A stretch of DNA of 64,000 nucleotides from a phage: sequence record PZ445442.1; one strand, written 5' to 3'. A program made the translations under genes and the position numbers. Positions 28,817-41,550 of the stretch are shown here, in pieces (the stretch's first letter is position 1; each line of letters opens with the position of its first letter). The notes beneath the pieces were generated by a model that saw only the letters and a program-made list of their open reading frames with translations, searched no databases and had not been told where the DNA came from.

Positions 28817-30022
28817 ATGATTTTCATCTACGAACATTTCAAAACTCGTAAAGAAGCACGCGACCGCCGTGCAGAACTTGAGAAGAAGGGTTTCACATGT
28901 GCTATTGAGAAAGGTACTACAACATGGACACTGGCAGTAGGTGCCCCAGAGCTGTTTGATCCTGACCGAGACAGTGTCTGCTATACCCGTGAGGATTTTG
29001 AAACCCGCGAAGAGGCCCGTTTATTCCGCTACGGACTGGAAGACAACGGTAAGTACGCCATGATCTTAGATTCAGGTGAAGGTTCCGTTAAACGTTGGGG
29101 CGTGGTATACCCACTGTGTGTTGTTCACGGTGTGGGGGTCACTGGGGTAGCAATCAAGTCAGAAGAACCTTTAGTAGAAGTCAAAGATCCGGTGCTGGAA
29201 GTGGTGAGCAGTGTGTCTCAGCAACAGTCTCGAAGCATCGAGCCTTTGGTAGTTATTTGCGGGGAACTCCTCCAGATCACCTGCAACGAAGGCATTTTTG
29301 AAATTCGCCGCAGCGAAAGTGAGGAAGTTTACCAGAAAGTCTTCGACCATATTTCTGTTCAGGAATATGATGAGGCAATTGGTGAAATCCTTGTCTGGCT
29401 GGAACGCAAGAATGAGTTCACCACACTTGCAGACAACCTGATCATGAAAGATGGTAAGCTCTACTACTACGGTGTAGAGATGCGATCCACCATTGCAAAG
29501 AAAATTGAGGAAGATTATGTAGATGGAACACTGGACGACCGATATGTTAAATTCCTTGTCCGTCTGCTACGCAACCCGTCTGCAAAATCTGTGAACATGC
29601 TCTACGATTTCATGCAGGCTAATGACATCCAGGTTGCAGAAGATGGTCGAATCATTTGCTATAAGGGGGTTCAGTTTAACGGGAGCAGGTGGGTGGATTG
29701 GCACAGTGGTAAAGTTCCACAATACCAGGGTGCTTTTGTGTCCATGCCTCGTGACTTTGTAGAAGATGATCCGGAAGCTGCGTGTTCTTATGGCCTGCAC
29801 TGCGCCAGCAAAGAGTATGCAGCGGGCTATGGCACTGTAATGATGGTTATGGTTGACCCTGCGGATGTGGTTAGTGTGCCATACCAACACAACAGTGCTA
29901 AGTGCCGTGCATGCCGCTACGAAATCGTAGCAGCACCGGAATCACGCAAAGATGGCGATCCGATTGAATACGTAGTTGACCGTGATGGTAACATCATCGA
30001 CATTATCTACGAGGAGGCGTAA
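28817..30022 (+). CDS. hypothetical protein (between GHKL ATPase and helicase)
   Basis: 401-aa ORF with two N-terminal repeats (FKTRKEARDRRAELEKKGF / FETREEARLFRYGLEDNGKY). Confidence 0.5.
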   Translation: MIFIYEHFKTRKEARDRRAELEKKGFTCAIEKGTTTWTLAVGAPELFDPDRDSVCYTREDFETREEARLFRYGLEDNGKYAMILDSGEGSVKRWGVVYPLCVVHGVGVTGVAIKSEEPLVEVKDPVLEVVSSVSQQQSRSIEPLVVICGELLQITCNEGIFEIRRSESEEVYQKVFDHISVQEYDEAIGEILVWLERKNEFTTLADNLIMKDGKLYYYGVEMRSTIAKKIEEDYVDGTLDDRYVKFLVRLLRNPSAKSVNMLYDFMQANDIQVAEDGRIICYKGVQFNGSRWVDWHSGKVPQYQGAFVSMPRDFVEDDPEAACSYGLHCASKEYAAGYGTVMMVMVDPADVVSVPYQHNSAKCRACRYEIVAAPESRKDGDPIEYVVDRDGNIIDIIYEEA

Positions 30023-31392
30023 TGGAAAAAGGGCAGTATGACGTAGGCACAGATGCTGCCCTCATTGCAATCATGAGTGGTGAGAATGTCTTCGTTTCAG
30101 GACCTGCAGGTTGTGGGAAGACGTATCTCATCAACATGATCCAGTCAATGTATGGAGACTCTTGCATAACGGTTGCCCCGACAGGGGTAGCCGCTTTAAA
30201 CGTTAATGGAGCAACAGCACACCGAACATTCGATCTTGCAGCAGGTGTGAGCATGGAGTCGGACTGGACCGCAATAAGGGCAAAAACAGCAAAGCCTTTG
30301 AAAAGCAAGGCATTTACCATCCTAATTATCGATGAAATCTCTATGATCCGTGCTGATAAGTTTATAGAGATGGATAGGAAACTCCGCTTCCTTCGAAAAA
30401 ATGACAAACCTTTCGGAGGCATACAGGTCATATTGTTTGGCGATTTTTACCAGGCACCTCCTGTTGTCTCTTCTATGGAGAAGGAAGCCTACTTCAACTT
30501 CTACCATACGGACCTGTGTTGCTACACCGAATCTTGGAAAGAGCTTGACCTCCACAACATAGCCCTAATAGATCAGTTCCGACAGGAGTCTATTCGATTT
30601 GCCACAATGCTCAACTGTGTTCGTGAGGGTCGTCGCATAAAAGAGGTTGTAGCAGAACTTAATGCTCGCTGTTACAAAGGCGGTGTACCAACAGACGCTC
30701 TCACAATTTGCGCCACCAACAAACAAGCAGAGGAAGTGAACAGAAGGTTCTATGATGCCATCAACGCCCCAGAGAAGGTATACACTGGTGAAATGAAGGG
30801 TAAGTTTCCCTCCACCCTGCCAGTTGAGCAGGAGATGAAGTTGAAAATTGGCATGAAAGTTATGATAACTGCCAACGATGTTGACCCGACGCACAAAGTA
30901 CCTTATTATGTTAACGGAACACGTGCCACAATTGTTAAATTTAAGAACAAGGCGGTGGTGGTAGAGCTTGAAGATGGAACACAGGTTGACATAGAGCAGA
31001 GGTTGTGGGAAAATAACGAGTATAAGCCCTCTCAGAGATACAACATTGCAGAAAGGAAGATGGAGAAGTTTATAGAGAGGGTAGTGATTGGGTCATACAA
31101 GCAACTTCCTCTGAAATCTGGGTACGCCGTAACATCTCATAAAAGTCAAGGACTTACGCTAGATTGTTACAACCTAGACCTTGGAAAGAACGGAGCTTTC
31201 TCTCCTGGGATGACGTATGTCGCTTTGAGTAGAGTTAAGACAATACAAGGAATAAACTTGTTGCGTCCCCTAAGAGAAGTTGACATTATTGTTGACCCGC
31301 GAGTAGTAGAGTTTTACAATACAACATTCCCTGACTTAGACAAAATTGTCAGGAAAGATTTTGAAACCAGAGCAGAAGAGGGGGACGTATGA
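30022..31392 (+). CDS. Dda/RecD/Pif1-like SF1 DNA helicase
   Basis: 456 aa; Walker A VSGPAGCGKT, Walker B IIDEISM, motif III GDFYQAPPV, motif TSHKSQGLT. Confidence 0.7.
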   Translation: MEKGQYDVGTDAALIAIMSGENVFVSGPAGCGKTYLINMIQSMYGDSCITVAPTGVAALNVNGATAHRTFDLAAGVSMESDWTAIRAKTAKPLKSKAFTILIIDEISMIRADKFIEMDRKLRFLRKNDKPFGGIQVILFGDFYQAPPVVSSMEKEAYFNFYHTDLCCYTESWKELDLHNIALIDQFRQESIRFATMLNCVREGRRIKEVVAELNARCYKGGVPTDALTICATNKQAEEVNRRFYDAINAPEKVYTGEMKGKFPSTLPVEQEMKLKIGMKVMITANDVDPTHKVPYYVNGTRATIVKFKNKAVVVELEDGTQVDIEQRLWENNEYKPSQRYNIAERKMEKFIERVVIGSYKQLPLKSGYAVTSHKSQGLTLDCYNLDLGKNGAFSPGMTYVALSRVKTIQGINLLRPLREVDIIVDPRVVEFYNTTFPDLDKIVRKDFETRAEEGDV

Positions 31393-31730
31393 GTTTGTGG
31401 AGAAATATCGTTAACTACGTGTGTGGCAATCCGACTCCTGAAGAGAAGGATGTTGTGATTCACGATTTTACTAAAAGATCTCGTGAAAAAGATCTACTGC
31501 TAACAAAGGTGACTGATAAAGATCCTGCAGTAGGGGACTGGGCAGGTTTTGCGTTTACATCGGACAAATACACCTTTAACAAAGGTGACTACCTTGTTGT
31601 GGATTTTAACGAAGACATTGAGGGTGCTGAACCTTACTATCAAACCCTTATTGTTGCAGGGTGTGTTAATCTCTCTGCAGGTATGCACAGTTTGATTCTT
31701 TTTGAGCTTGACTCTGAAGACCTTGAGTAG
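31389..31730 (+). CDS. hypothetical protein
   Basis: 113-aa ORF overlapping helicase stop. Confidence 0.4.
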   Translation: MSLWRNIVNYVCGNPTPEEKDVVIHDFTKRSREKDLLLTKVTDKDPAVGDWAGFAFTSDKYTFNKGDYLVVDFNEDIEGAEPYYQTLIVAGCVNLSAGMHSLILFELDSEDLE

Positions 31731-31736
31731 TAAGAT
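31708..31736 (+). promoter_or_regulatory. sigma70-like promoter upstream of methyltransferase gene
   Basis: TTGACT-17nt-TAAGAT, followed by 5' stem-loop GGGGAGG-CACT-CCTCCCC (31748-31765) and RBS AAGGAGA. Confidence 0.45.
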
Positions 31737-31791
31737 GTGAGTATAAAGGGGAGGCACTCCTCCCCACAAAAACTAAGGAGAGCACCAAACG

Positions 31792-33118
31792 ATGAGTAAA
31801 ACCAAATTAGAACTAACCTGGATAGGTAAAAACGAGCGCAAAAAGTTAGAGCCACACATTTTGTTAGAAGATTCTAGCAAGTCTTACCACAGCCAGAAAG
31901 TGACCGAAAACGATATTTTTTGATAATAAACTGATTTTTGGAGATAACTTATTAGCATTGAAGGCGCTAGAGCAAGAGTATGCAGGCAAAGTGAAGTGTG
32001 TTTACATAGACCCACCATTCAATACTGGAAGGGCTTTTGAGCACTACGATGATAGCCTTGAGCATTCCATTTGGCTGGGCTTAATGAGGGATAGGTTAGA
32101 AATAATTCGTAATCTTCTAAGTGATGATGGGGTAATATTCGTTCACTTAGATGATTGCGAAATGGCGTATTTAAAAGTTTTGATGGACGAGATTTTTGGT
32201 CGTGCAAATCAGTTAAATACCATATCGATGACCACAAATTCCCCTTCGGGATTTAAGGCAACAGGAGCCACAGTTTTCTCCACAGCAAACTTTTTGCTTG
32301 TATATGCAAAAGATCACACCCAGAAACCGCTTAACAAAATCTATATACCTAAAGGGTACGATACAGGATATAACAAATACCTATTAAACCCGGATGACCA
32401 TTATAAAAATTGGACGTGGTGCAGTATTGCCGATGCGTTTGCAAAGGCCAATGGCTATAAGGATGCAAAAGAAGCCAAGAAAAAACTACCTGACACATTC
32501 GATGATGAATTAGCACAATTCGCAATTGATAATGCAGAACGTGTATTTCAATCTGTTGCAATTGGTGGTGGTGCTAAAATAAAGAGAAAAGAAACTATCG
32601 AGAAGTCAAAGAAAGATAGGGATAAGGTTTATGTACATCCAAATGAGGATGTTGAAGGATTTTATATCGCAAATGGTAGGCAAATGGTCTTTTACTCCAA
32701 TAGGCTTTTGGAAATTGACGGTGAGATGCAACCTGCGGAACTAATAACTGATGTTTGGACAGACATTGGTTGGAATGGAATAGCAAATGAAGGCGGCGTT
32801 AGTTTCAAAAATGGGAAAAAACCAGAAGCGCTTTTGAAGCGGATTTTCGAAATGTGCACGCGAGAAGGCGATTTGGTATTGGATTCATTCGGTGGTTCGG
32901 GAACTACTGCTGCTGTAGCTCATAAGATGAAAAGACGCTGGATCTCAATCGAGCTAGGTGATCATTGTCATACCCATATTATTCCGCGCTTGGAAAAAGT
33001 GATCGATGGCGAAGATCAAGGTGGTATTTCTAAGTCTGTAAACTGGCAAGGTGGTGGTGGCTTCCGTTATTACAAACTTGCCCCGGCCTTAGTTGCGAAA
33101 GATAAGTCTGATCAATAA
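31792..33118 (+). CDS. N6-adenine DNA methyltransferase (Mod-like), interrupted by +1 frameshift at T6 tract 31916-31921
   Basis: N-terminal 43 codons (MSKTKLELTWIGK..ENDIF) stop at TGA 31921; the +1 frame continues FFDNKLIFGDNLLALKALEQ..VKCVYIDPPFNTG (DPPF motif IV) to 33118; removing one T restores a single ORF. Confidence 0.6.
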
Positions 33119-33131
33119 AGAGTACAATCAA

Positions 33132-33437
33132 ATGATGAAACGTTATAAACCATACACTTTTGAAATCGATTTTGAACTTGACGATATGTTCACTGTGGAA
33201 GCTCAGGCAGTTGTCCAGTTGCCAGACCCAGAGTGTCGTGATTCTGATGTTGACTATTATGGATTTAGACAGATCACTGATGTGCATGTTTACCACAACG
33301 GTGAAGAGGTGGACTTCCACAAACTGCCAAACGATATGCGCCACTCAATTTACAAACGTGCAGCCCGTGAACTAGAGTCCTATCTTGATGCAGCGACGAC
33401 AGCAGCTGCATTTGCCGAAGAAGTGGGAGGTTTCTGA
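33132..33437 (+). CDS. hypothetical protein
   Basis: 101 aa from ATG 33132; upstream part of the track ORF overlaps the methyltransferase. Confidence 0.4.
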   Translation: MMKRYKPYTFEIDFELDDMFTVEAQAVVQLPDPECRDSDVDYYGFRQITDVHVYHNGEEVDFHKLPNDMRHSIYKRAARELESYLDAATTAAAFAEEVGGF

Positions 33438-33832
33438 TGATTACAGATGTGAAGATTGTCCAATACCACTTAACCAAGTTGGAAGATGCTGAGAAAGAGC
33501 TTGCAGAAGTTCTGAATAGTGGATATACTTTGCTATCATGCGCCTGCTCAGACACCTACGCTGTGTGGACACTTATCAGGAAGGAAGAGCCTGCAGGGAT
33601 CTTGGTGCCAAACCCTAAGATTATTAGTGAGGTGGATGACTACCCCCAGGACGGCCTGCCAGAAGGCTGGGAAGTATGGGAAGGTGGTGAAAACCCTGCA
33701 CCAGGTAAGTGGGTAAAATACAAACTACGTAGTGGTGCACAGTACGCTGACTACTCTGATGACCTAGACTGGAGTCATTCTTCACCAGGATCATCTGCAA
33801 GTTCATATGATATCGTTGCTTTTCAGGAATAA
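33437..33832 (+). CDS. hypothetical protein
   Basis: 131-aa ORF, ATGA overlap. Confidence 0.45.
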   Translation: MITDVKIVQYHLTKLEDAEKELAEVLNSGYTLLSCACSDTYAVWTLIRKEEPAGILVPNPKIISEVDDYPQDGLPEGWEVWEGGENPAPGKWVKYKLRSGAQYADYSDDLDWSHSSPGSSASSYDIVAFQE

Positions 33833-33844
33833 GGAGAGGGTGTT

Positions 33845-34327
33845 ATGTCAGATTTTATGTGGAAAGTAGGCTATGCCACTCCTGAAATGTGCGAGGCTTG
33901 CTTTGTGAAAATAGGCCGCGAGGATATCGACAAAGTGATCCTTAAGTTTCGTGATGTGGCTGTGATCGGCAACCGAGTGCTTAAGCACTTAAAGAATCTG
34001 AAGCTCACCAAAAAGAAGTTCTTCGGGCTTTTCGAAGAGAAAGTTGATGCTTGGACCCATTGCATTCAGGAAGCTAAATCTCACTACAGTGCTATCGTTA
34101 CTCCAGAACGGGTAGCTAAGATGGAAGGATTCATTAACAGCACAGAATTTGAGTGTCTGAAAGCTGCACTCGATAGTTATCCGAAATGCCTTAAGCACTT
34201 GGACAAGTATGCAGAAAAGGATGGGGAAATGTATCTAACCCTGGACGCATATTATGAGATGCAAGAAATTTTAAATTTAGATTTGACATTGGTATCCACC
34301 GAGTATACAATAGGTATCCGGGTTTAA
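33845..34327 (+). CDS. hypothetical protein
   Basis: 160-aa ORF, RBS AAGGAGAGGG. Confidence 0.45.
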   Translation: MSDFMWKVGYATPEMCEACFVKIGREDIDKVILKFRDVAVIGNRVLKHLKNLKLTKKKFFGLFEEKVDAWTHCIQEAKSHYSAIVTPERVAKMEGFINSTEFECLKAALDSYPKCLKHLDKYAEKDGEMYLTLDAYYEMQEILNLDLTLVSTEYTIGIRV

Positions 34328-34333
34328 CACTAG

Positions 34334-34360
34334 GCCCTGCCCGAAAGGGTGGGGCTTTTT
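34334..34360 (+). terminator. Rho-independent terminator (copy 1 of a duplicated terminator)
   Basis: GCCCTGCCC-GAAA-GGGTGGGGC then TTTTT; same hairpin recurs at 46611. Confidence 0.6.
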
Positions 34361-34378
34361 GCATTAGGAGACAGCAAA

Positions 34379-35140
34379 TTGAAATTTATCTACAAAGAAC
34401 ACTACCACAAAGGTGTTGTGTGGAGTCTATTTGACGGGTCTGGTGGTGCAGTCATTGACTGGGCAAAAGCTGGGTACCTGTGCCTGTGCTTTAATGCAGA
34501 AGGCGCTGATCACGGCAGTTATGCAGAGGTGATCACCGATCATCCCAACATTCACTATGTGGACTATTGGATTGACCCGTGGTTCCCTCAGGAAACTTTT
34601 TGCATGTATCCGGCTCCAGATTTTATTCTTGCATTTCCTCCGTGCACGCATTTAGCGGTATCAGGTGCTGCACATTTTAAGAAAAAGCTGGCTAAGGACC
34701 CCATGATCCAAATTAATGCTGTAAAGGATGCTCGGGTTGCGGAAGAGCTGGGAGAGATTTACGATTGCCCGTGGCATGTAGAGAATCCTGTGGGTGTTAT
34801 GTCCACACTGTGGCGCAAACCTGATTACCGTTTTCACCCTTCGGATTATGGCGGGTATTTACCGGAAGATGATGTAAACCCATGGTTTCCTGAATTTATA
34901 GCTCCACGTGATGCCTATCCAAAAATAACTTGCGGCTGGATAGGTAATGGATTTATAATCCCAGCCACAAAACCTGTCCCGCAAATAGTTGACGCGGTTA
35001 GTGGGTACTCCATGCAACACGCTAAGCTGGGTGGAAAGAGTGCAAGAACGAAGATGATCCGAAGCCTCACACCACGTGGCTGGGCAAAAGCTGTATTCTT
35101 AGCAAACGAGCCTGTAGTAAGGAGAAGGGCCAATGGTTGA
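34379..35140 (+). CDS. DNA (cytosine-5)-methyltransferase-like protein
   Basis: Motif I SLFDGSGG, motif IV-like FPPCTHLAVSG (PC dipeptide), motif VI-like HVENPVG; probable TTG start at 34379 after RBS AGGAG (track ORF starts 34349). Confidence 0.5.
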   Translation: MKFIYKEHYHKGVVWSLFDGSGGAVIDWAKAGYLCLCFNAEGADHGSYAEVITDHPNIHYVDYWIDPWFPQETFCMYPAPDFILAFPPCTHLAVSGAAHFKKKLAKDPMIQINAVKDARVAEELGEIYDCPWHVENPVGVMSTLWRKPDYRFHPSDYGGYLPEDDVNPWFPEFIAPRDAYPKITCGWIGNGFIIPATKPVPQIVDAVSGYSMQHAKLGGKSARTKMIRSLTPRGWAKAVFLANEPVVRRRANG

Positions 35141-35804
35141 CTGGAGCAAGTATTTCACCTACAGTGACGGCAAACTGTTCTGGGCGTACACTGCAAAAGC
35201 CGGAAGGGGCAGGGTTATACATTACGCAGGTGAGGAGGCCACAGGCACAGATAAAAATGGCTATAGAGTGATATATGTGTCAGGTGTTGGGAGTGTTCGT
35301 AGGCATAGAATAGTTTGGGAGATGCATTACGGGGAGATACCTGAGGGACTTGTTGTGCGGCACAAGAACGACATAGCGGGCGATGATAGGGTAGAGAACT
35401 TAGTCCTAGGTACACAGGGCGATAATGCACGAGACATGATCTACAGTGACAAACTGAGCATTAACAATACCTCAGGGTGTAGAGGTGTACGCTACCATAG
35501 AGGCATAAAAAGATGGATTGCATCTGTTGGAGATATATACTTAGGGTGTTTTAAGACAAAAGAGGCTGCAATTGAATGCAGAAAGTTATGGGAGAAGGGA
35601 AAATTCGTCCCGCAAGAGTTGGATGTTAGAAACACTAGCGGTGTAACAGGGGTGTTCTATGTGCCGAGCTCTGGAAGGTGGAGAGTCAGAGTGCAAAGCG
35701 GCAAAAAGAGAAAGAGCTATGGCACTTACAATACTTTAGAAGAAGCAAAAACTGTAAGGGATAGAGTGATGAAAGAGATTGAGGAGTTTAAAGATGGGGA
35801 ATAA
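35133..35804 (+). CDS. HNH homing endonuclease with AP2-type DNA-binding repeats
   Basis: 223 aa; HNH region RHRIVWEMHYGEIPEGLVVRHKNDIAGDDRVENL; two AP2-like repeats (GCRGVRYHRGIKRWIASV, SGVTGVFYVPSSGRWRVRV). Confidence 0.6.
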   Translation: MVDWSKYFTYSDGKLFWAYTAKAGRGRVIHYAGEEATGTDKNGYRVIYVSGVGSVRRHRIVWEMHYGEIPEGLVVRHKNDIAGDDRVENLVLGTQGDNARDMIYSDKLSINNTSGCRGVRYHRGIKRWIASVGDIYLGCFKTKEAAIECRKLWEKGKFVPQELDVRNTSGVTGVFYVPSSGRWRVRVQSGKKRKSYGTYNTLEEAKTVRDRVMKEIEEFKDGE

Positions 35805-37872
35805 GTTTATATCCTCTGCATATAGCCGCTATGGAGAACCTAACCCAGTTGCAACAAGATACAAAAGTGGGGGTAGTATGAAACGAGACTATCGTGATGA
35901 AAAAGAGGTTGAAACTGTAGAGACTGTTTTAGAAAATACTAAAATTGTCCCTGTCCCACAACAAAATATCGGTCTGATGGCTGCACAATATTTTGGTGTG
36001 CGATCAGCATTGTCCCAAGAAGACGGTGTGACAGTCACTGCAACATATTTCCCATATTACGACCGATACGGAAATCTGTCCGGTTTCAAAAAGCGTGACT
36101 GGTCTAAGCCGAAAGAGCAGAAAGGGCACTGGTCTGTAGTAGGCATCGTAAAGGCCAACTCCCAGATGTTTGGTCAAAAGCTGTGTGCATCTTCCAACAA
36201 CCGTAAGCAGATCAACGTTTGTGAGGGAGAAGGTGATGTTATTGCAGCATGGCAGGCTGCATATCAGATACAAGTAAAAGGGATTCTCACCAATGCTAAA
36301 GCCCCGGCAAAGGTGAAGCAGTGGGCTAAAGAGGTCCAGGACGGGATCGATGCAGTTATCAACGGCGGTGATCTGGCAGGAAAACCCTGCCTGCCTTTTG
36401 TTGGAATTAACTGTGGATGTGCAAACGCAGTAGATACTTTTGCAAACAATGAGAAGTTTATCCGTAGCTATGGAACAGTTGTGCTGGCAATGGATAACGA
36501 TGCAGCTAACGAGGTAGAGAAGCAAAAACACGTCATTAAAGGTGTTGAGGCCACGCACAATATCGCAGCATTTTTAATGGCTGATAACGTTTACCACGTA
36601 GAATACCCTGGTGAAGTAAACGACCCTGACGGTGTAAAAGATATCCGAGACATGCTGAAGGCTAAAAAGCTGGAAGATATTGTCAACATGTTCCGGCATC
36701 CTGTTAAATATGTGCCTGATGCTGTGTCGGATTTAGAAGACTTCTCTATCGAGTCTTTGCGGAAAAAGACTTCCAACGGGGTAGATATCAGTGCAGAGTT
36801 CCCAAAACTGCAAAAAATGCTAAAAGGCTTGCACAAAGGGACACTCGTAATGCTTACAGGTCCATCAGGCGGCGGTAAAACAACCGTGGCTAAAAAACTG
36901 GAACACTGTATTGCAAGATACCTAATGGATCCGACATGCCAGAAGGCTGATGACTATGAAGAGGATGATCGTCTATGTATGATCCATCTTGAGGAGGACC
37001 CAGAGGAAGCAATTAACTCCTTGTATGCAAACCAGTTAGGGTTTGATGTTAAAGAGTTTGTTGAAGATCCTAGCCAGTTTTTAACTGATCAAGAACACGC
37101 AGAGATTCACCAATCATGGGCAAAAGCTGGAAAAATCAAAGTGTTCAAACATTTCGGGTCTATTCCGGTGGACGAGTTGATTACCAAGCTTAAGCAAATG
37201 GTTTGCCTGTACCATTGTCGTTATATTGTGCTGGATCACCTATCCATGGTAATTTCAGGGCTTAATGTTAAGGATGAGCGAAAAGAACTGGACATAGCTA
37301 TGACTCAGCTGGCTGCGTTTTGTAAGCAGTTTAATGTGTTTATCTTGGTGATCGCTCACCTCAAACGTACAGAGATTGTGCCTCCTAAGGACAAGGATGG
37401 TAACCCGTTACCTTTCTGGTATCCTGTGCGAAAAGAGAATTTGCGAGGATCGGCTGGGCTTGAGCAGTTGAGTTGGGTAGTCATAGGTGTCGAGGCCGAA
37501 GAAATGGTGGATCGTTCTCGTGGGCGTGTCCGTCTGGTAGGTCTTAAAAACCGTCCAGCAAAAACTTTAGGTATTGCTGACACTTTAGTTATGGACCCAC
37601 ACACAGGTAAGTTCCATGATGCCAGTAATTGGTACTGGGACAAAGAAATGCAAATGTTTACAGACGGAGAAGGTGGGGAGGTTGTTTGGAGACCTCAGGC
37701 TATGTTTGAGGATCAGGAGCATGCAGTTGTAGAAACACCTATGGGCAAGGTTGTGGCTGATAAGGTTGTAACTCCTACTGTTAAGTCTGTTGACACGCAG
37801 GAAGACCTCCAGTACGATGATCCATCCTCTGACCCGGTCCCCGGTTTTGAGGATGATGAAACGCCTTTTTAA
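35794..37872 (+). CDS. primase-helicase (T7 gp4-like: Toprim primase + DnaB-family helicase)
   Basis: Toprim-like CEGEGDVIAAW; Walker A LTGPSGGGKTT; Walker B YIVLDHLSMV; start ATG 35794 after RBS GAGGAG. Confidence 0.65.
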   Translation: MGNKFISSAYSRYGEPNPVATRYKSGGSMKRDYRDEKEVETVETVLENTKIVPVPQQNIGLMAAQYFGVRSALSQEDGVTVTATYFPYYDRYGNLSGFKKRDWSKPKEQKGHWSVVGIVKANSQMFGQKLCASSNNRKQINVCEGEGDVIAAWQAAYQIQVKGILTNAKAPAKVKQWAKEVQDGIDAVINGGDLAGKPCLPFVGINCGCANAVDTFANNEKFIRSYGTVVLAMDNDAANEVEKQKHVIKGVEATHNIAAFLMADNVYHVEYPGEVNDPDGVKDIRDMLKAKKLEDIVNMFRHPVKYVPDAVSDLEDFSIESLRKKTSNGVDISAEFPKLQKMLKGLHKGTLVMLTGPSGGGKTTVAKKLEHCIARYLMDPTCQKADDYEEDDRLCMIHLEEDPEEAINSLYANQLGFDVKEFVEDPSQFLTDQEHAEIHQSWAKAGKIKVFKHFGSIPVDELITKLKQMVCLYHCRYIVLDHLSMVISGLNVKDERKELDIAMTQLAAFCKQFNVFILVIAHLKRTEIVPPKDKDGNPLPFWYPVRKENLRGSAGLEQLSWVVIGVEAEEMVDRSRGRVRLVGLKNRPAKTLGIADTLVMDPHTGKFHDASNWYWDKEMQMFTDGEGGEVVWRPQAMFEDQEHAVVETPMGKVVADKVVTPTVKSVDTQEDLQYDDPSSDPVPGFEDDETPF

Positions 37873-37930
37873 TGTTTAACAAAGAGTGGGAGGGGTAGTA
37901 CAACCGCCTCCCCTTTAAGGAGAACTGTAT

Positions 37931-40321
37931 ATGAGTATGTGGTCGTTCGATTTTGAGTCATCCGGTTTGCTGGAAGACCCAGATCTTTATTATCACTGCG
38001 GTCTGTTTAAAGAGCTGAATAAGAACCGTTTTATGCTGTTCCTTCCTCTAAATGACCGCACACACTACTCCGAGGAGGATATAGAAAAGGCTAAGAACTT
38101 CATTCTGGCAAAGAAAACTCTTTATAAAGATTTTGAAGTTCGCATAGCAGATTTTTCGGAGTTGGAAGGTTGGCTTACAGGCAATTCTGACTGGTCACCA
38201 ACAGCTTTGAACTGCCATAACTGCTACAGTTATGACTTTATGCTGATGGAAAGATTATCCGGTATTCATTTTGATATGTTCCGTGATCCTAAATGCATGG
38301 GGACTATCAACGATCACCAGGTTAACCTGTTTGATACGTTGGCGATGAGCCGAATCTTGTGGCCTGATCGCCCTTTACCAAAAGGTTGTCCGGACTCTGT
38401 ATTCAACCCGGTTACTAAGAAAATGCAGCCTGTTGGTCCCCACGGCCTTATGGCATGGGGCTACGCCCTTGGTAACCAGAAAGTTCAAATTGATGACTGG
38501 CGCGATCTTCCGTTGTGGAAGTATGTGGATCGTGTATTCGAGGACGTTATCATCCAGGAGCTGCTCTGGAAAGAGCTGGTAGCGGAATCAAAAGGTGTAT
38601 TCTACGGCAAATCTGACATGCAGAACTTTATGTACGATCCTGCCAAAGAGAAGCCGAAAGGGTTCAAGAAGATCACCTGGAAGAACGCATTACGCCGAGG
38701 CATGCTGCAGCACTTCCTGATGGAGCTGCAGGCCCGTCAGGGTGTGTATTTTGACATAGATGGAGCTATTGCTTTACGTGACCGTTGCGATGCGTGGATG
38801 AAAGAAATCGCTGATCGTGTTGAACCACAACTACCTTTAAAAGAGTTGTCAATGTCTCAGCGGCCCAAGTTCCCTGAAAAGCCGTTTAACCAAGATGGGA
38901 CAATCTCCAATAATGGTTGGAAATGGTTAAAAGATAAGCTTGGCTATCCTGTAGATATGAGCGCTTTAGAGTTCAAAGCCCCGCCTAAGCGAGCATTTAC
39001 CTCCACAGGGGATGTCAGCAAGATGGGGATAAAATGGTGTGAAGAGATGGGCTGCAAAGACCCTGATAAGATGGCTGATTTCTTGAGAGGCTATATTAAG
39101 GGCACTTCCACACCACAACCTTTACCTAAAGAGCTGATGGATCAGGCAATAAGTGATCTGCAGCAGAAGCGAATGCCTGACTGCAAGATACCTATGAAAA
39201 TCAGCAATCAGGACGACATTAAGCGGTATCTGATCAGTGCTGGCTGGCTCCCGACGATGTGGAGAACTAAGGATGTAACTAAAGACAGCAAGAAGAAAGC
39301 CCTACCTGATGCAGATGTTGATGCACGAGTATATGCATATATGGACGAGCTTTTAGAGTCAGAGTATTGTGATCTGATTATCAACTTCTGGAACAAAACT
39401 GATGCTAAGTTCCAGACAACCGTGCACAAGTTCCGAAGCTTTCCTAACTCCGAAAGGATTAAAAAGGAAGTATTCGGGAAAATACGTAGAAAAGCTAGGG
39501 CACTTATTACTTCTCCGCAACTGAAAGATACGTTTGGACACCTATGCCCGAATCTTGAAAAATTGAACGGAGAGATGGCTAAAGATATCGTCTTGTGGTT
39601 ATCTTTGCGAAACCGCAGATCGGTACTTGATCCAATCAAGGAGGATAAGGTTGATACTGGTCTTCTTAATCACCCACGTTTGAAGATTGACCATAAGCTT
39701 CCTGCTAAAAGCTCTGGATTAACAAACACTTCCAGACAGAAACACAGTATTTGTGCAAACATGCCTAAACCATCTCCTAAAGTGGTCATGGGTAAAGAGA
39801 TGCGTAGTCTGTGGGGTGTTCCTCCAGGATACTTTGAGATCGGTATTGACGGGTCCAACTTAGAGCAGCTTATCGGGGCTTGGGGTGCCTTTGAGTTCGA
39901 CAACGGATTGTATTATGATGTTGTAAGTAACGGGGACGCACACCAAAACAATGCTGAAGCATATACAAAAGTGGCAGGCAGAGAGGTGTCTCGTAACGAC
40001 GGTAAACCTATCACGTATGGGGTTATGTATGGGGCACAAAAAGATAAAGTTGCAGATATGCTGGACATCTCTCCAGAACTGGGGCAGAGAGTAATTGATG
40101 CTCTCTGGGATGCCAACCCAGGTCTTAAGGGGCGCAAAGAGGATCTGGAGAAATTCTGGGAAGCAACAGGTAAGAAATTTATCTACTCTTTTGACGGGCA
40201 TGCCATTTGGACCCGCTCTAAACACTCTTTGCTTAATGCATATCAGCAAAATGGCGGTGCATCGTTGTGCGACTTGGTCGGAATCCTCATGCACCACCAA
40301 ATGGTGAAGCGTGGATGGTAT
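37931..40321 (+). CDS. family A DNA polymerase, exon 1 (3'-5' exo + polymerase motifs A and B)
   Basis: Exo I FDFESSGL; motif A GIDGSNLEQLIGAW; motif B KPITYGVMYGAQ; track ORF runs 12 codons further into the intron to a stop at 40360. Confidence 0.65.
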
Positions 40322-41196
40322 GATGAAGGTGTTCGTCGTATTATTTATTACCATAAATAACATTGTGGCTTCGTGCAGTGATGCACGTCGAAAACCTCTT
40401 TAATTGACGGGAAGGCTAAGTTGACTTTTACACCTAAACATGGTAAAAGCTCAATATGCTAATCCGCAGCGAAGACTAAAGGGGTGTAGTTAAAATGGCT
40501 AGATCAGTTGATTATCACGGATATACCGTGTTTGATGATGGAACAATACCTTTATCGAAACGTGATCATACAACAATGTTCTGTTTTGATAATGGTCGAG
40601 GTTACCTTTGCGTAACCATGTTCATCGAGGGGAAGCAGTGCACAAAAGGTGTCCACCACTTGGTTGCTGAATGCTTTGTATCAAACCCTGATCCTGAAAG
40701 GCTCACATGGGTGAACCATAAGGACGGAAACAAATACAACAATGCATACTGGAACCTTGAATGGACCACCCCTGGTGGAAATATCAAACACGCTTATGAT
40801 AATGACCTCAGAGTAAGGCCAGTCGGTGAGTATAATGCCAACGCTGTACTGACCGAGGATGAGGTAACGGAGATTTGCGAACTGTTACAAAGTGGTTTAC
40901 GACAATGCGAGATTAGGGATCTTGGGTATCCTTATGAGACGGTCAGAGCCATAAAGCAAAGAAGACAGTGGAAACATATCTCTAAAAACTACACCTGGTA
41001 GTAACGTTCAGAGACTATCGAAAGCATAGCGCCAACATAAATTGGTGCGAAGAAGCGAGTAGAGTAGGCCAGCAAGTGCGGTCGAAATGGGAGGTGCCTT
41101 GGTAACAAGGTAGTGAGATAGTCCGATCCATACAGGAAACTGTATGGCTGTGCACGTAATGGTGCGGGGTAGCTTAACGACCTACCTGAACTATTG
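40322..41196 (+). mobile_element. group I intron with HNH homing endonuclease ORF, inside the DNA polymerase gene
   Basis: Elements matching the conserved P (AATTGACGGGAA, 40402-40413), Q (AATCCGCAGC, 40461-40470), R (GTTCAGAGACTATC, 41006-41019) and S (GAGATAGTCC, 41115-41124) sequences; P9-like hairpin CCATACAG-GAAA-CTGTATGG (41128-41147); U at -1 (40321) and terminal G (41196); boundaries inferred. Confidence 0.6.
40495..41001 (+). CDS. intron-encoded HNH homing endonuclease
   Basis: 168 aa; HNH region GVHHLVAECFVSNPDPERLTWVNHKDGNKYNNAYWNLEW; lies between intron Q and R elements. Confidence 0.65.
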   Translation: MARSVDYHGYTVFDDGTIPLSKRDHTTMFCFDNGRGYLCVTMFIEGKQCTKGVHHLVAECFVSNPDPERLTWVNHKDGNKYNNAYWNLEWTTPGGNIKHAYDNDLRVRPVGEYNANAVLTEDEVTEICELLQSGLRQCEIRDLGYPYETVRAIKQRRQWKHISKNYTW

Positions 41197-41550
41197 GATG
41201 AGTACCAACTTCAAGTGCCTGACACACCTAAGTATAAAACCGTATACACCTTCGACACAATTGAAGAGCTGGAAACATTTAAGGCCAAGCAGGAGGCTAA
41301 ACTTCATGTGTTCGACGGTCATAAGTACAAAAAGGCACGCAAGGATGAGGATGGAAACGAAGTGGTTGACAAGGACGGAAATACGGTGTACGATCCTATC
41401 CTGAACGATGACGGAAAGCTTGAACTTATCTGGAGCCCTGTGGGTGAAATGGTGGTGCATTGCTTCTGGCAAGCTTCTAAAATGATGGGAGTCCCGTTCC
41501 AGATCACAGGTGAATACTTGTGTGGTCGTAATTGGGGTGATTGTCACTAA
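41197..41550 (+). CDS. family A DNA polymerase, exon 2 (C-terminal region)
   Basis: Begins DEYQLQV, which joined to exon 1 gives GWY|DEYQLQV (motif C-like); ends GRNWGDCH with terminal His, as I recall for T7 gp5 and E. coli Pol I. Confidence 0.55.
   Translation, partial: DEYQLQVPDTPKYKTVYTFDTIEELETFKAKQEAKLHVFDGHKYKKARKDEDGNEVVDKDGNTVYDPILNDDGKLELIWSPVGEMVVHCFWQASKMMGVPFQITGEYLCGRNWGDCH

Follow-up and report, generated by a model that had tools for sequence, protein, structure and literature searches.

The best described relative of the gene considered here is the Dcm protein of phage K42, a Drexlerviridae siphovirus whose genome is 95.4% identical to that of phage KarlJaspers (Bas06) (Wang et al., bioRxiv 10.1101/2023.08.16.553469, also cited as Cell Rep 2024;43:114857). 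In four of four K42 escapers of retron Ec86, the 711-bp dcm gene or the sequence immediately ahead of it carried lesions, and expression of K42 Dcm was toxic only with the retron present (bioRxiv 10.1101/2023.08.16.553469). By LC-MS, 5mC on the Ec86 msDNA rose with wild-type K42 Dcm and not with C82A/E128A/K175A/K176A, and K175 was proposed by Wang et al. as substrate-binding (bioRxiv 10.1101/2023.08.16.553469). The CCWGG target of the enzyme was assumed from host Dcm and is unmapped, its sole support being a mutation of the msDNA CCTGG; the experiments were done in dcm+ MG1655, a host that on its own leaves the retron untriggered (bioRxiv 10.1101/2023.08.16.553469).

The window analysed here, a stretch of 64,000 nucleotides of phage DNA (PZ445442.1), is 100% identical from 30000 to 40000, over 10 kb, to Escherichia phage EmilHeitz (Bas49, MZ501062.1), which belongs to the BASEL collection and, being an rV5-like Vequintavirus, is a myovirus, unlike K42 and KarlJaspers. 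Its gene bas49_0074 is named 'Dcm-like C5 cytosine methyltransferase' in the GenBank record of EmilHeitz. The gene and its upstream signals are as follows.

34283-34311, plus strand: candidate sigma70-like promoter from a consensus scan, TTGACA-17-TACAAT (11/12), in the 3' end of the upstream gene
34332-34357, plus strand: terminator-like GC-rich hairpin (11 bp, GAAA loop, T-run) that follows the stop codon of the upstream gene at 34325-34327 and precedes the methyltransferase ribosome-binding site
34367-34371, plus strand: Shine-Dalgarno AGGAG, 7 nt upstream of the TTG, read off the sequence
34379-35140, plus strand: compact C5 cytosine DNA methyltransferase CDS bas49_0074, 253 aa, TTG start, TGA stop

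The open reading frame listing holds a longer frame, 34349-35140, from an upstream GTG; the TTG at 34379 is the start both in GenBank and in the first-pass annotation of this DNA. Upstream, the candidate promoter is followed within about 20 nt by the strong hairpin, ahead of the methyltransferase ribosome-binding site, which is an odd arrangement; the hairpin may end the upstream operon or may stabilise the 5' end of the methyltransferase mRNA. A chance open reading frame at 34379-35140 is ruled out by homology. The gene is intact, genuine and already annotated, and it is an ordinary one, whose compact family has one tested member.

The bas49_0074 protein aligns over its full length with the 236-aa KarlJaspers Dcm (54% identity, E 2e-86). 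Both belong to one family and share its architecture, the PCT motif, matching catalytic Cys, Glu and Lys residues and a location in the phage replication region; they differ in that the bas49_0074 protein has an N-terminus longer by 7 residues, H91 in place of Asp and I183 in place of Lys. The mutated K42 residues C82, E128, K175 and K176 align with C89, E135, K182 and I183. The first three of these are kept in 124, 126 and 120 of the 127 aligned family members, respectively, while the I183 position varies within the family (K in 65, R in 20, others in 42). Further support comes from the match to PHROG 757, 'DNA methyltransferase' (E 5.6e-87), which covers residues 2-251 and thus amounts to full-length family homology.

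Taken with the fold comparisons given below, in which C5-methyltransferases are the top matches, this similarity to a near-relative of a 5mC-forming enzyme upholds the first-pass reading of the protein as C5-methyltransferase-like. Judging from sequence homology and the modelled fold, we put at roughly 80% the probability that bas49_0074 encodes an active AdoMet-dependent DNA cytosine-C5 methyltransferase of the compact phage family PHROG 757, expressed with the replication genes. The gene is flanked by helicase, primase/helicase and DNA polymerase genes. That the bas49_0074 protein itself is active, which sequence it would target and what the phage would gain from it are matters of inference. 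The first-pass annotation had also allowed for a different substrate or activity; nothing found here speaks in favour of one, and we do not favour it.

The three motifs on which that annotation had drawn (SLFDGSGG, FPPCTHLAVSG and HVENPVG) are all present at the places given for them, and a fourth, tentative element was found towards the C-terminus.

34424-34447, plus strand: motif I SLFDGSGG, residues 16-23, predicted to form the AdoMet-binding loop that follows strand beta1, aligning with DLFAGIGG of E. coli Dcm
34634-34666, plus strand: motif IV FPPCTHLAVSG, residues 86-96, with Cys89 (nt 34643-34645) as the predicted catalytic nucleophile
34775-34795, plus strand: motif VI HVENPVG, residues 133-139, with Glu135 (nt 34781-34783), aligning with LENV of Dcm
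35060-35098, plus strand: tentative motif IX-like R228-S-L-T-P-R-G-W-A-K-A-V-F, residues 228-240, where the C-terminal helix (233-252) begins

The FxGxG AdoMet loop of C5-methyltransferases is complete in bas49_0074 (F18-D-G20-S-G22-G23). Across the 127-member alignment, F18 and G22 are conserved and G20 and G23 are not; motif I is degenerate in distant members (SLYDFTGEA, SLFDKSTLA), where only F/Y18 and G22 are kept. The Pro-Cys of motif IV (P88-C89) aligns with the PCQ of Dcm (z 2.8 in segment alignment), and the ENV-type Glu of motif VI is accompanied by N136 in 118 and P137 in 125 of the 127 aligned members. R146 (WRKPD) is likewise near-invariant in the family alignment. In the C-terminal element, R228, P232 and G234 are each at least 90% conserved in the family; the best local match of RSLTPRGWAK in E. 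coli Dcm is RRLTPRECAR, with a z of 0.8 that is insignificant alone. Segment-wise local alignment to Dcm placed motifs I, IV and IX correctly, of which only motif IV beat most shuffles. The same segment alignment gave no confident assignment of motifs VIII (QxRxR) to X in bas49_0074, and no clear GNxV (motif X) was found there.

Homology to classical C5-methyltransferases suggests how such an enzyme would work. AdoMet would be held by motif I (F18, G20, G22, G23) together with N39 at the end of beta2, a position at which most family members have Asp. The target cytosine would be flipped out of the DNA, whereupon the Cys89 thiolate of the PC motif would attack C6 and Glu135 of the ENP motif would protonate N3. 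Methyl transfer to C5 would be followed by beta-elimination, freeing the enzyme.

Two features had appeared anomalous at first pass, namely the Thr after the catalytic Cys and the length of about 250 aa. The Thr was read correctly, and E. coli Dcm has PCQ at this place (GFPCQPFS). PCT is nevertheless the family consensus rather than a departure from it, occurring in 207 of 235 sequences, with T90 present in 114 of the 127 aligned members. Nor is the protein unusually short for its kind: this length is the norm of a large phage family, and the tested relative, at 236 aa, has PCT as well. A search of a 90%-clustered protein database returned 3553 homologues at E<=1e-3 (best 1.6e-176), and at the 50% identity level 1027 clusters were obtained; among the cluster representatives listed, most are 205-275 aa long. 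By tblastn, 1506 phage records match the bas49_0074 protein. Identity is at least 95% in 117 of them, and the remainder are mainly Escherichia, Klebsiella, Salmonella, Shigella and Vibrio phages, including Drexlerviridae coliphages. Among the structural matches in BFVD, A0A6J5SE15 and A0A6J5NPY6 (24-26% identity, TM ~0.6) carry the compact methyltransferase fold as one domain of proteins of 1126-1397 aa from uncultured phages, one of which is annotated with a helicase/UvrB N-terminal domain.

Curated profiles give a different picture. Pfam and NCBIfam scans of the bas49_0074 protein returned no relevant match, and its score lies below the PF00145 gathering score. The first-pass annotation had named profile assignment as a check on its reading, and the lack of any significant methyltransferase profile hit as evidence against it. 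A missing hit of this kind is uninformative as a refutation because the KarlJaspers homologue also fails PF00145 (11.1 bits against a cutoff of 22). PF00145 is matched at E<=0.01 by 6 of the 127 aligned family members, and its gathering cutoff of 22 bits is passed by the representatives P0072 (28.5 bits) and P0055 (24.7 bits) through motifs I-IV only. Searched against PDB sequences, the family profile found no significant C5-methyltransferase (DNMT2 at E 0.51, HaeIII at E 0.83), and neither phmmer nor this profile yielded more than insignificant matches to HaeIII and DNMT2 through motifs I-IV. These profile results place the PHROG 757 family outside current curated models.

The AlphaFold2 model of the bas49_0074 protein, built from a 127-sequence alignment, has a pLDDT of 94.5 and a pTM of 0.91, and its predicted order of strands and helices fits the Rossmann-like methyltransferase core of the class I AdoMet-methyltransferase fold. 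Foldseek against the PDB gave 50 matches at E<=1e-3, nearly all of them DNMT3A/3B catalytic domains (best E 1.8e-6), with the prophage CP-933R C5-methyltransferase 3g7u also among them. The DNMT3A and DNMT3B catalytic domains align with about 190 of the 253 residues at 13-16% identity and a TM-score of ~0.5; in contrast to these enzymes, the bas49_0074 protein has no known regulatory domains or DNMT3L-type partner.

The bas49_0074 protein has the same predicted catalytic-domain fold as the classical C5-methyltransferases (M.HhaI, M.HaeIII and Dcm), with motifs I, IV and VI collinear. The difference lies in size and in recognition: E. coli Dcm has 472 aa with a PF00145 domain and the solved M.HhaI and M.HaeIII chains have about 325 aa, whereas bas49_0074, at 253 aa, lacks a large target-recognition domain. 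Where a variable target-recognition domain would lie, between motifs VIII and IX, we found only about 60 residues, and these are among the family's most conserved.

34841-35023, plus strand: family-specific region of residues 155-215, mostly loop apart from a short strand (184-189), presumed DNA-contact element

This region has near-invariant D178, Y180, K182, T184, W187 and P195 and a pLDDT of ~98. Going by its conservation, it presumably contacts DNA in place of the large recognition domain. Since it is conserved family-wide, the members probably share one recognition mode. We considered a true, CCWGG-specific Dcm orthologue and rejected it: the protein has no Dcm-type recognition domain or N-terminal region, and hhalign put the match between the family and 20 E. 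coli Dcm orthologues at a probability of 5.7%, in a comparison limited by the little diverse Dcm profile (74-100% identity). The label 'Dcm-like' overstates the relationship and was given without evidence for CCWGG specificity. The frequency of sites in the window is uninformative on the target (observed/expected 0.89 for CCWGG and 1.0 for GATC). Palindrome and CCWGG counts in the window showed no telling avoidance, several absent 6-mers having small expected counts, and the literature on rV5-like or Drexlerviridae phage methylomes yielded no 5mC mapping.

A bolder proposal, which we regard as unlikely, is that PHROG 757 forms a separate minimal C5-methyltransferase lineage, structurally nearer eukaryotic DNMT3 than bacterial Dcm, in which the conserved loop replaces the variable recognition domain; its members would then have one unusual recognition mode or a non-standard cofactor. 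If so, the target may be very short or structure-dependent (a hairpin or single-stranded DNA) and not CCWGG, or, alternatively, members may accept a cofactor such as carboxy-AdoMet.

The neighbourhood of bas49_0074 includes a second methyltransferase gene and a homing endonuclease gene.

31792-33118, plus strand: N6-adenine methyltransferase gene (PF01555, Pfam E 5.4e-42 on ORF 31958-33118), with a +1 frameshift in the T6 run 31916-31921
35133-35804, plus strand: homing endonuclease gene (HNH_3 and AP2, from Pfam and annotation), between the methyltransferase and primase/helicase genes, its ATG overlapping the methyltransferase stop by 8 nt

The endonuclease gene is present in Phage 203 and Phage 206. 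For most relatives, coverage of the 10-kb query is 93% and falls into two pieces, which reflects absence of the endonuclease gene, and in CarlMeissner the methyltransferase gene directly adjoins the primase/helicase gene. Further downstream, the annotation of the DNA polymerase CDS (~37931-41550 in the window) joins two pieces and places a second putative homing endonuclease gene within it (~40495-41001), which suggests an intron or intein-like insertion.

The first-pass annotation had credited the phage with two DNA-modification enzymes. An N6-adenine methyltransferase gene does begin at 31792; its upstream frame, however, runs into stops in EmilHeitz, where the run at 31916-31921 is T6 and that of relatives T5. 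Because of this +1 frameshift, EmilHeitz may not carry two active modification enzymes, and we consider the pair doubtful. Among the 73 phage records that match 31880-31955, EmilHeitz alone reaches 100% identity; the next-best records reach 98.7% and align 75 bases with 76 query bases, as a one-base gap would give. An intact 1326-bp CDS is annotated in seven relatives, and over the shared part the intact protein of WalterGehring/Bas51 shows 99.1% identity. The EmilHeitz record annotates the gene as 32084-33118 only, with a start that lies past the DPPF catalytic motif. The extra T may be a genuine inactivating change or a sequencing error, or it may be bypassed by slippage. GATC sites in phage DNA are methylated by the Bas51 N6-methyltransferase, which also sets off retrons Asa1 and Squ1 (PMC12548924). 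In a separate observation, 11-16 'Campylobacter phage' records (MG0656xx, host C. jejuni) match rV5-like coliphage genes, their N6-methyltransferase being ~98% identical; these host labels look doubtful.

An anti-restriction role, with which the supposed pair had been held consistent, is one that we can only infer. Maffei et al. described the Vequintavirinae as 'exceptionally susceptible' to the restriction-modification systems that they tested, so that no protective effect is seen, and reported methyltransferase genes of Drexlerviridae without a simple link to restriction resistance (PMC8594841). A benefit of this kind from bas49_0074 is plausible by analogy, protection from 5mC-sensitive nucleases being the usual assumption.

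The broken state of the adjoining N6-methyltransferase gene bears on whether bas49_0074 might itself be a remnant, that is, a catalytically dead or decaying protein, or one that still binds DNA but has lost methylation activity. Consistent with such decay are the missing curated profile match, the replacement by I183 of the second Lys of the KK pair, and H91 in place of the usual Asp after PCT. Among the 127 aligned members this position is D in 92 and H in 16, and its presence in the latter indicates that H91 is tolerated. We judge a remnant very unlikely, since the ORF is intact and the catalytic residues are conserved: motif I, Cys89, Glu135-Asn-Pro, R146 and K182 are all kept, and many Vequintavirus genomes encode the protein at 98% identity. 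Elsewhere in the family, the representative P0261 is without the PC and ENP motifs, and distant members (e.g. SLYDFTGEA) are without two of the three motif I glycines. These losses suggest that some family branches may not bind AdoMet or may be inactive.

Covalent Cys chemistry with another cofactor is a still more improbable reading of bas49_0074. In this scheme, carboxy-AdoMet, for example, which is made by E. coli CmoA, would yield 5-carboxymethylcytosine, as it does for the phage enzyme CmoX. A fold match to CmoX, a common PPC motif and the conserved Arg233 of the bas49_0074 protein, a possible counterpart of CmoX R350, are in keeping with this, the CmoX signature being SPPC with R350 (PMC12783734). 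The K42 relative, however, raised 5mC specifically, and the annotated neighbourhood of bas49_0074 has no cmoA or amide-ligase gene. CmoX (DNA cytosine C5-carboxymethyltransferase, PDB 8yf3) is also longer than the bas49_0074 protein (solved chain 333 aa), takes carboxy-AdoMet as its cofactor and has linked cmoA and ligase genes. DNMT3A also has an Arg in motif X (GRSW), yet uses AdoMet, which counts against a carboxy-AdoMet enzyme here.

Least credible of all is an RNA (e.g. tRNA) m5C methyltransferase like DNMT2, or an enzyme acting mainly on host nucleic acids, as DNA C5-methyltransferases top both fold searches and rank above DNMT2, the relative's demonstrated substrate is DNA and bas49_0074 lies in the replication module.

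If bas49_0074 is indeed a DNA cytosine-C5 methyltransferase, as we consider probable, it represents a compact family that is very common in phages (~1500 phage records from coliphages and from Klebsiella, Salmonella and Vibrio phages) and invisible to Pfam and NCBIfam. The sole documented effect of a member of this family is a cost, namely the triggering of retron Ec86 (Eco1). Mapping of the target would clarify which restriction or 5mC-dependent systems are affected, how retron Eco1 is triggered and how these enzymes achieve recognition without a conventional domain.
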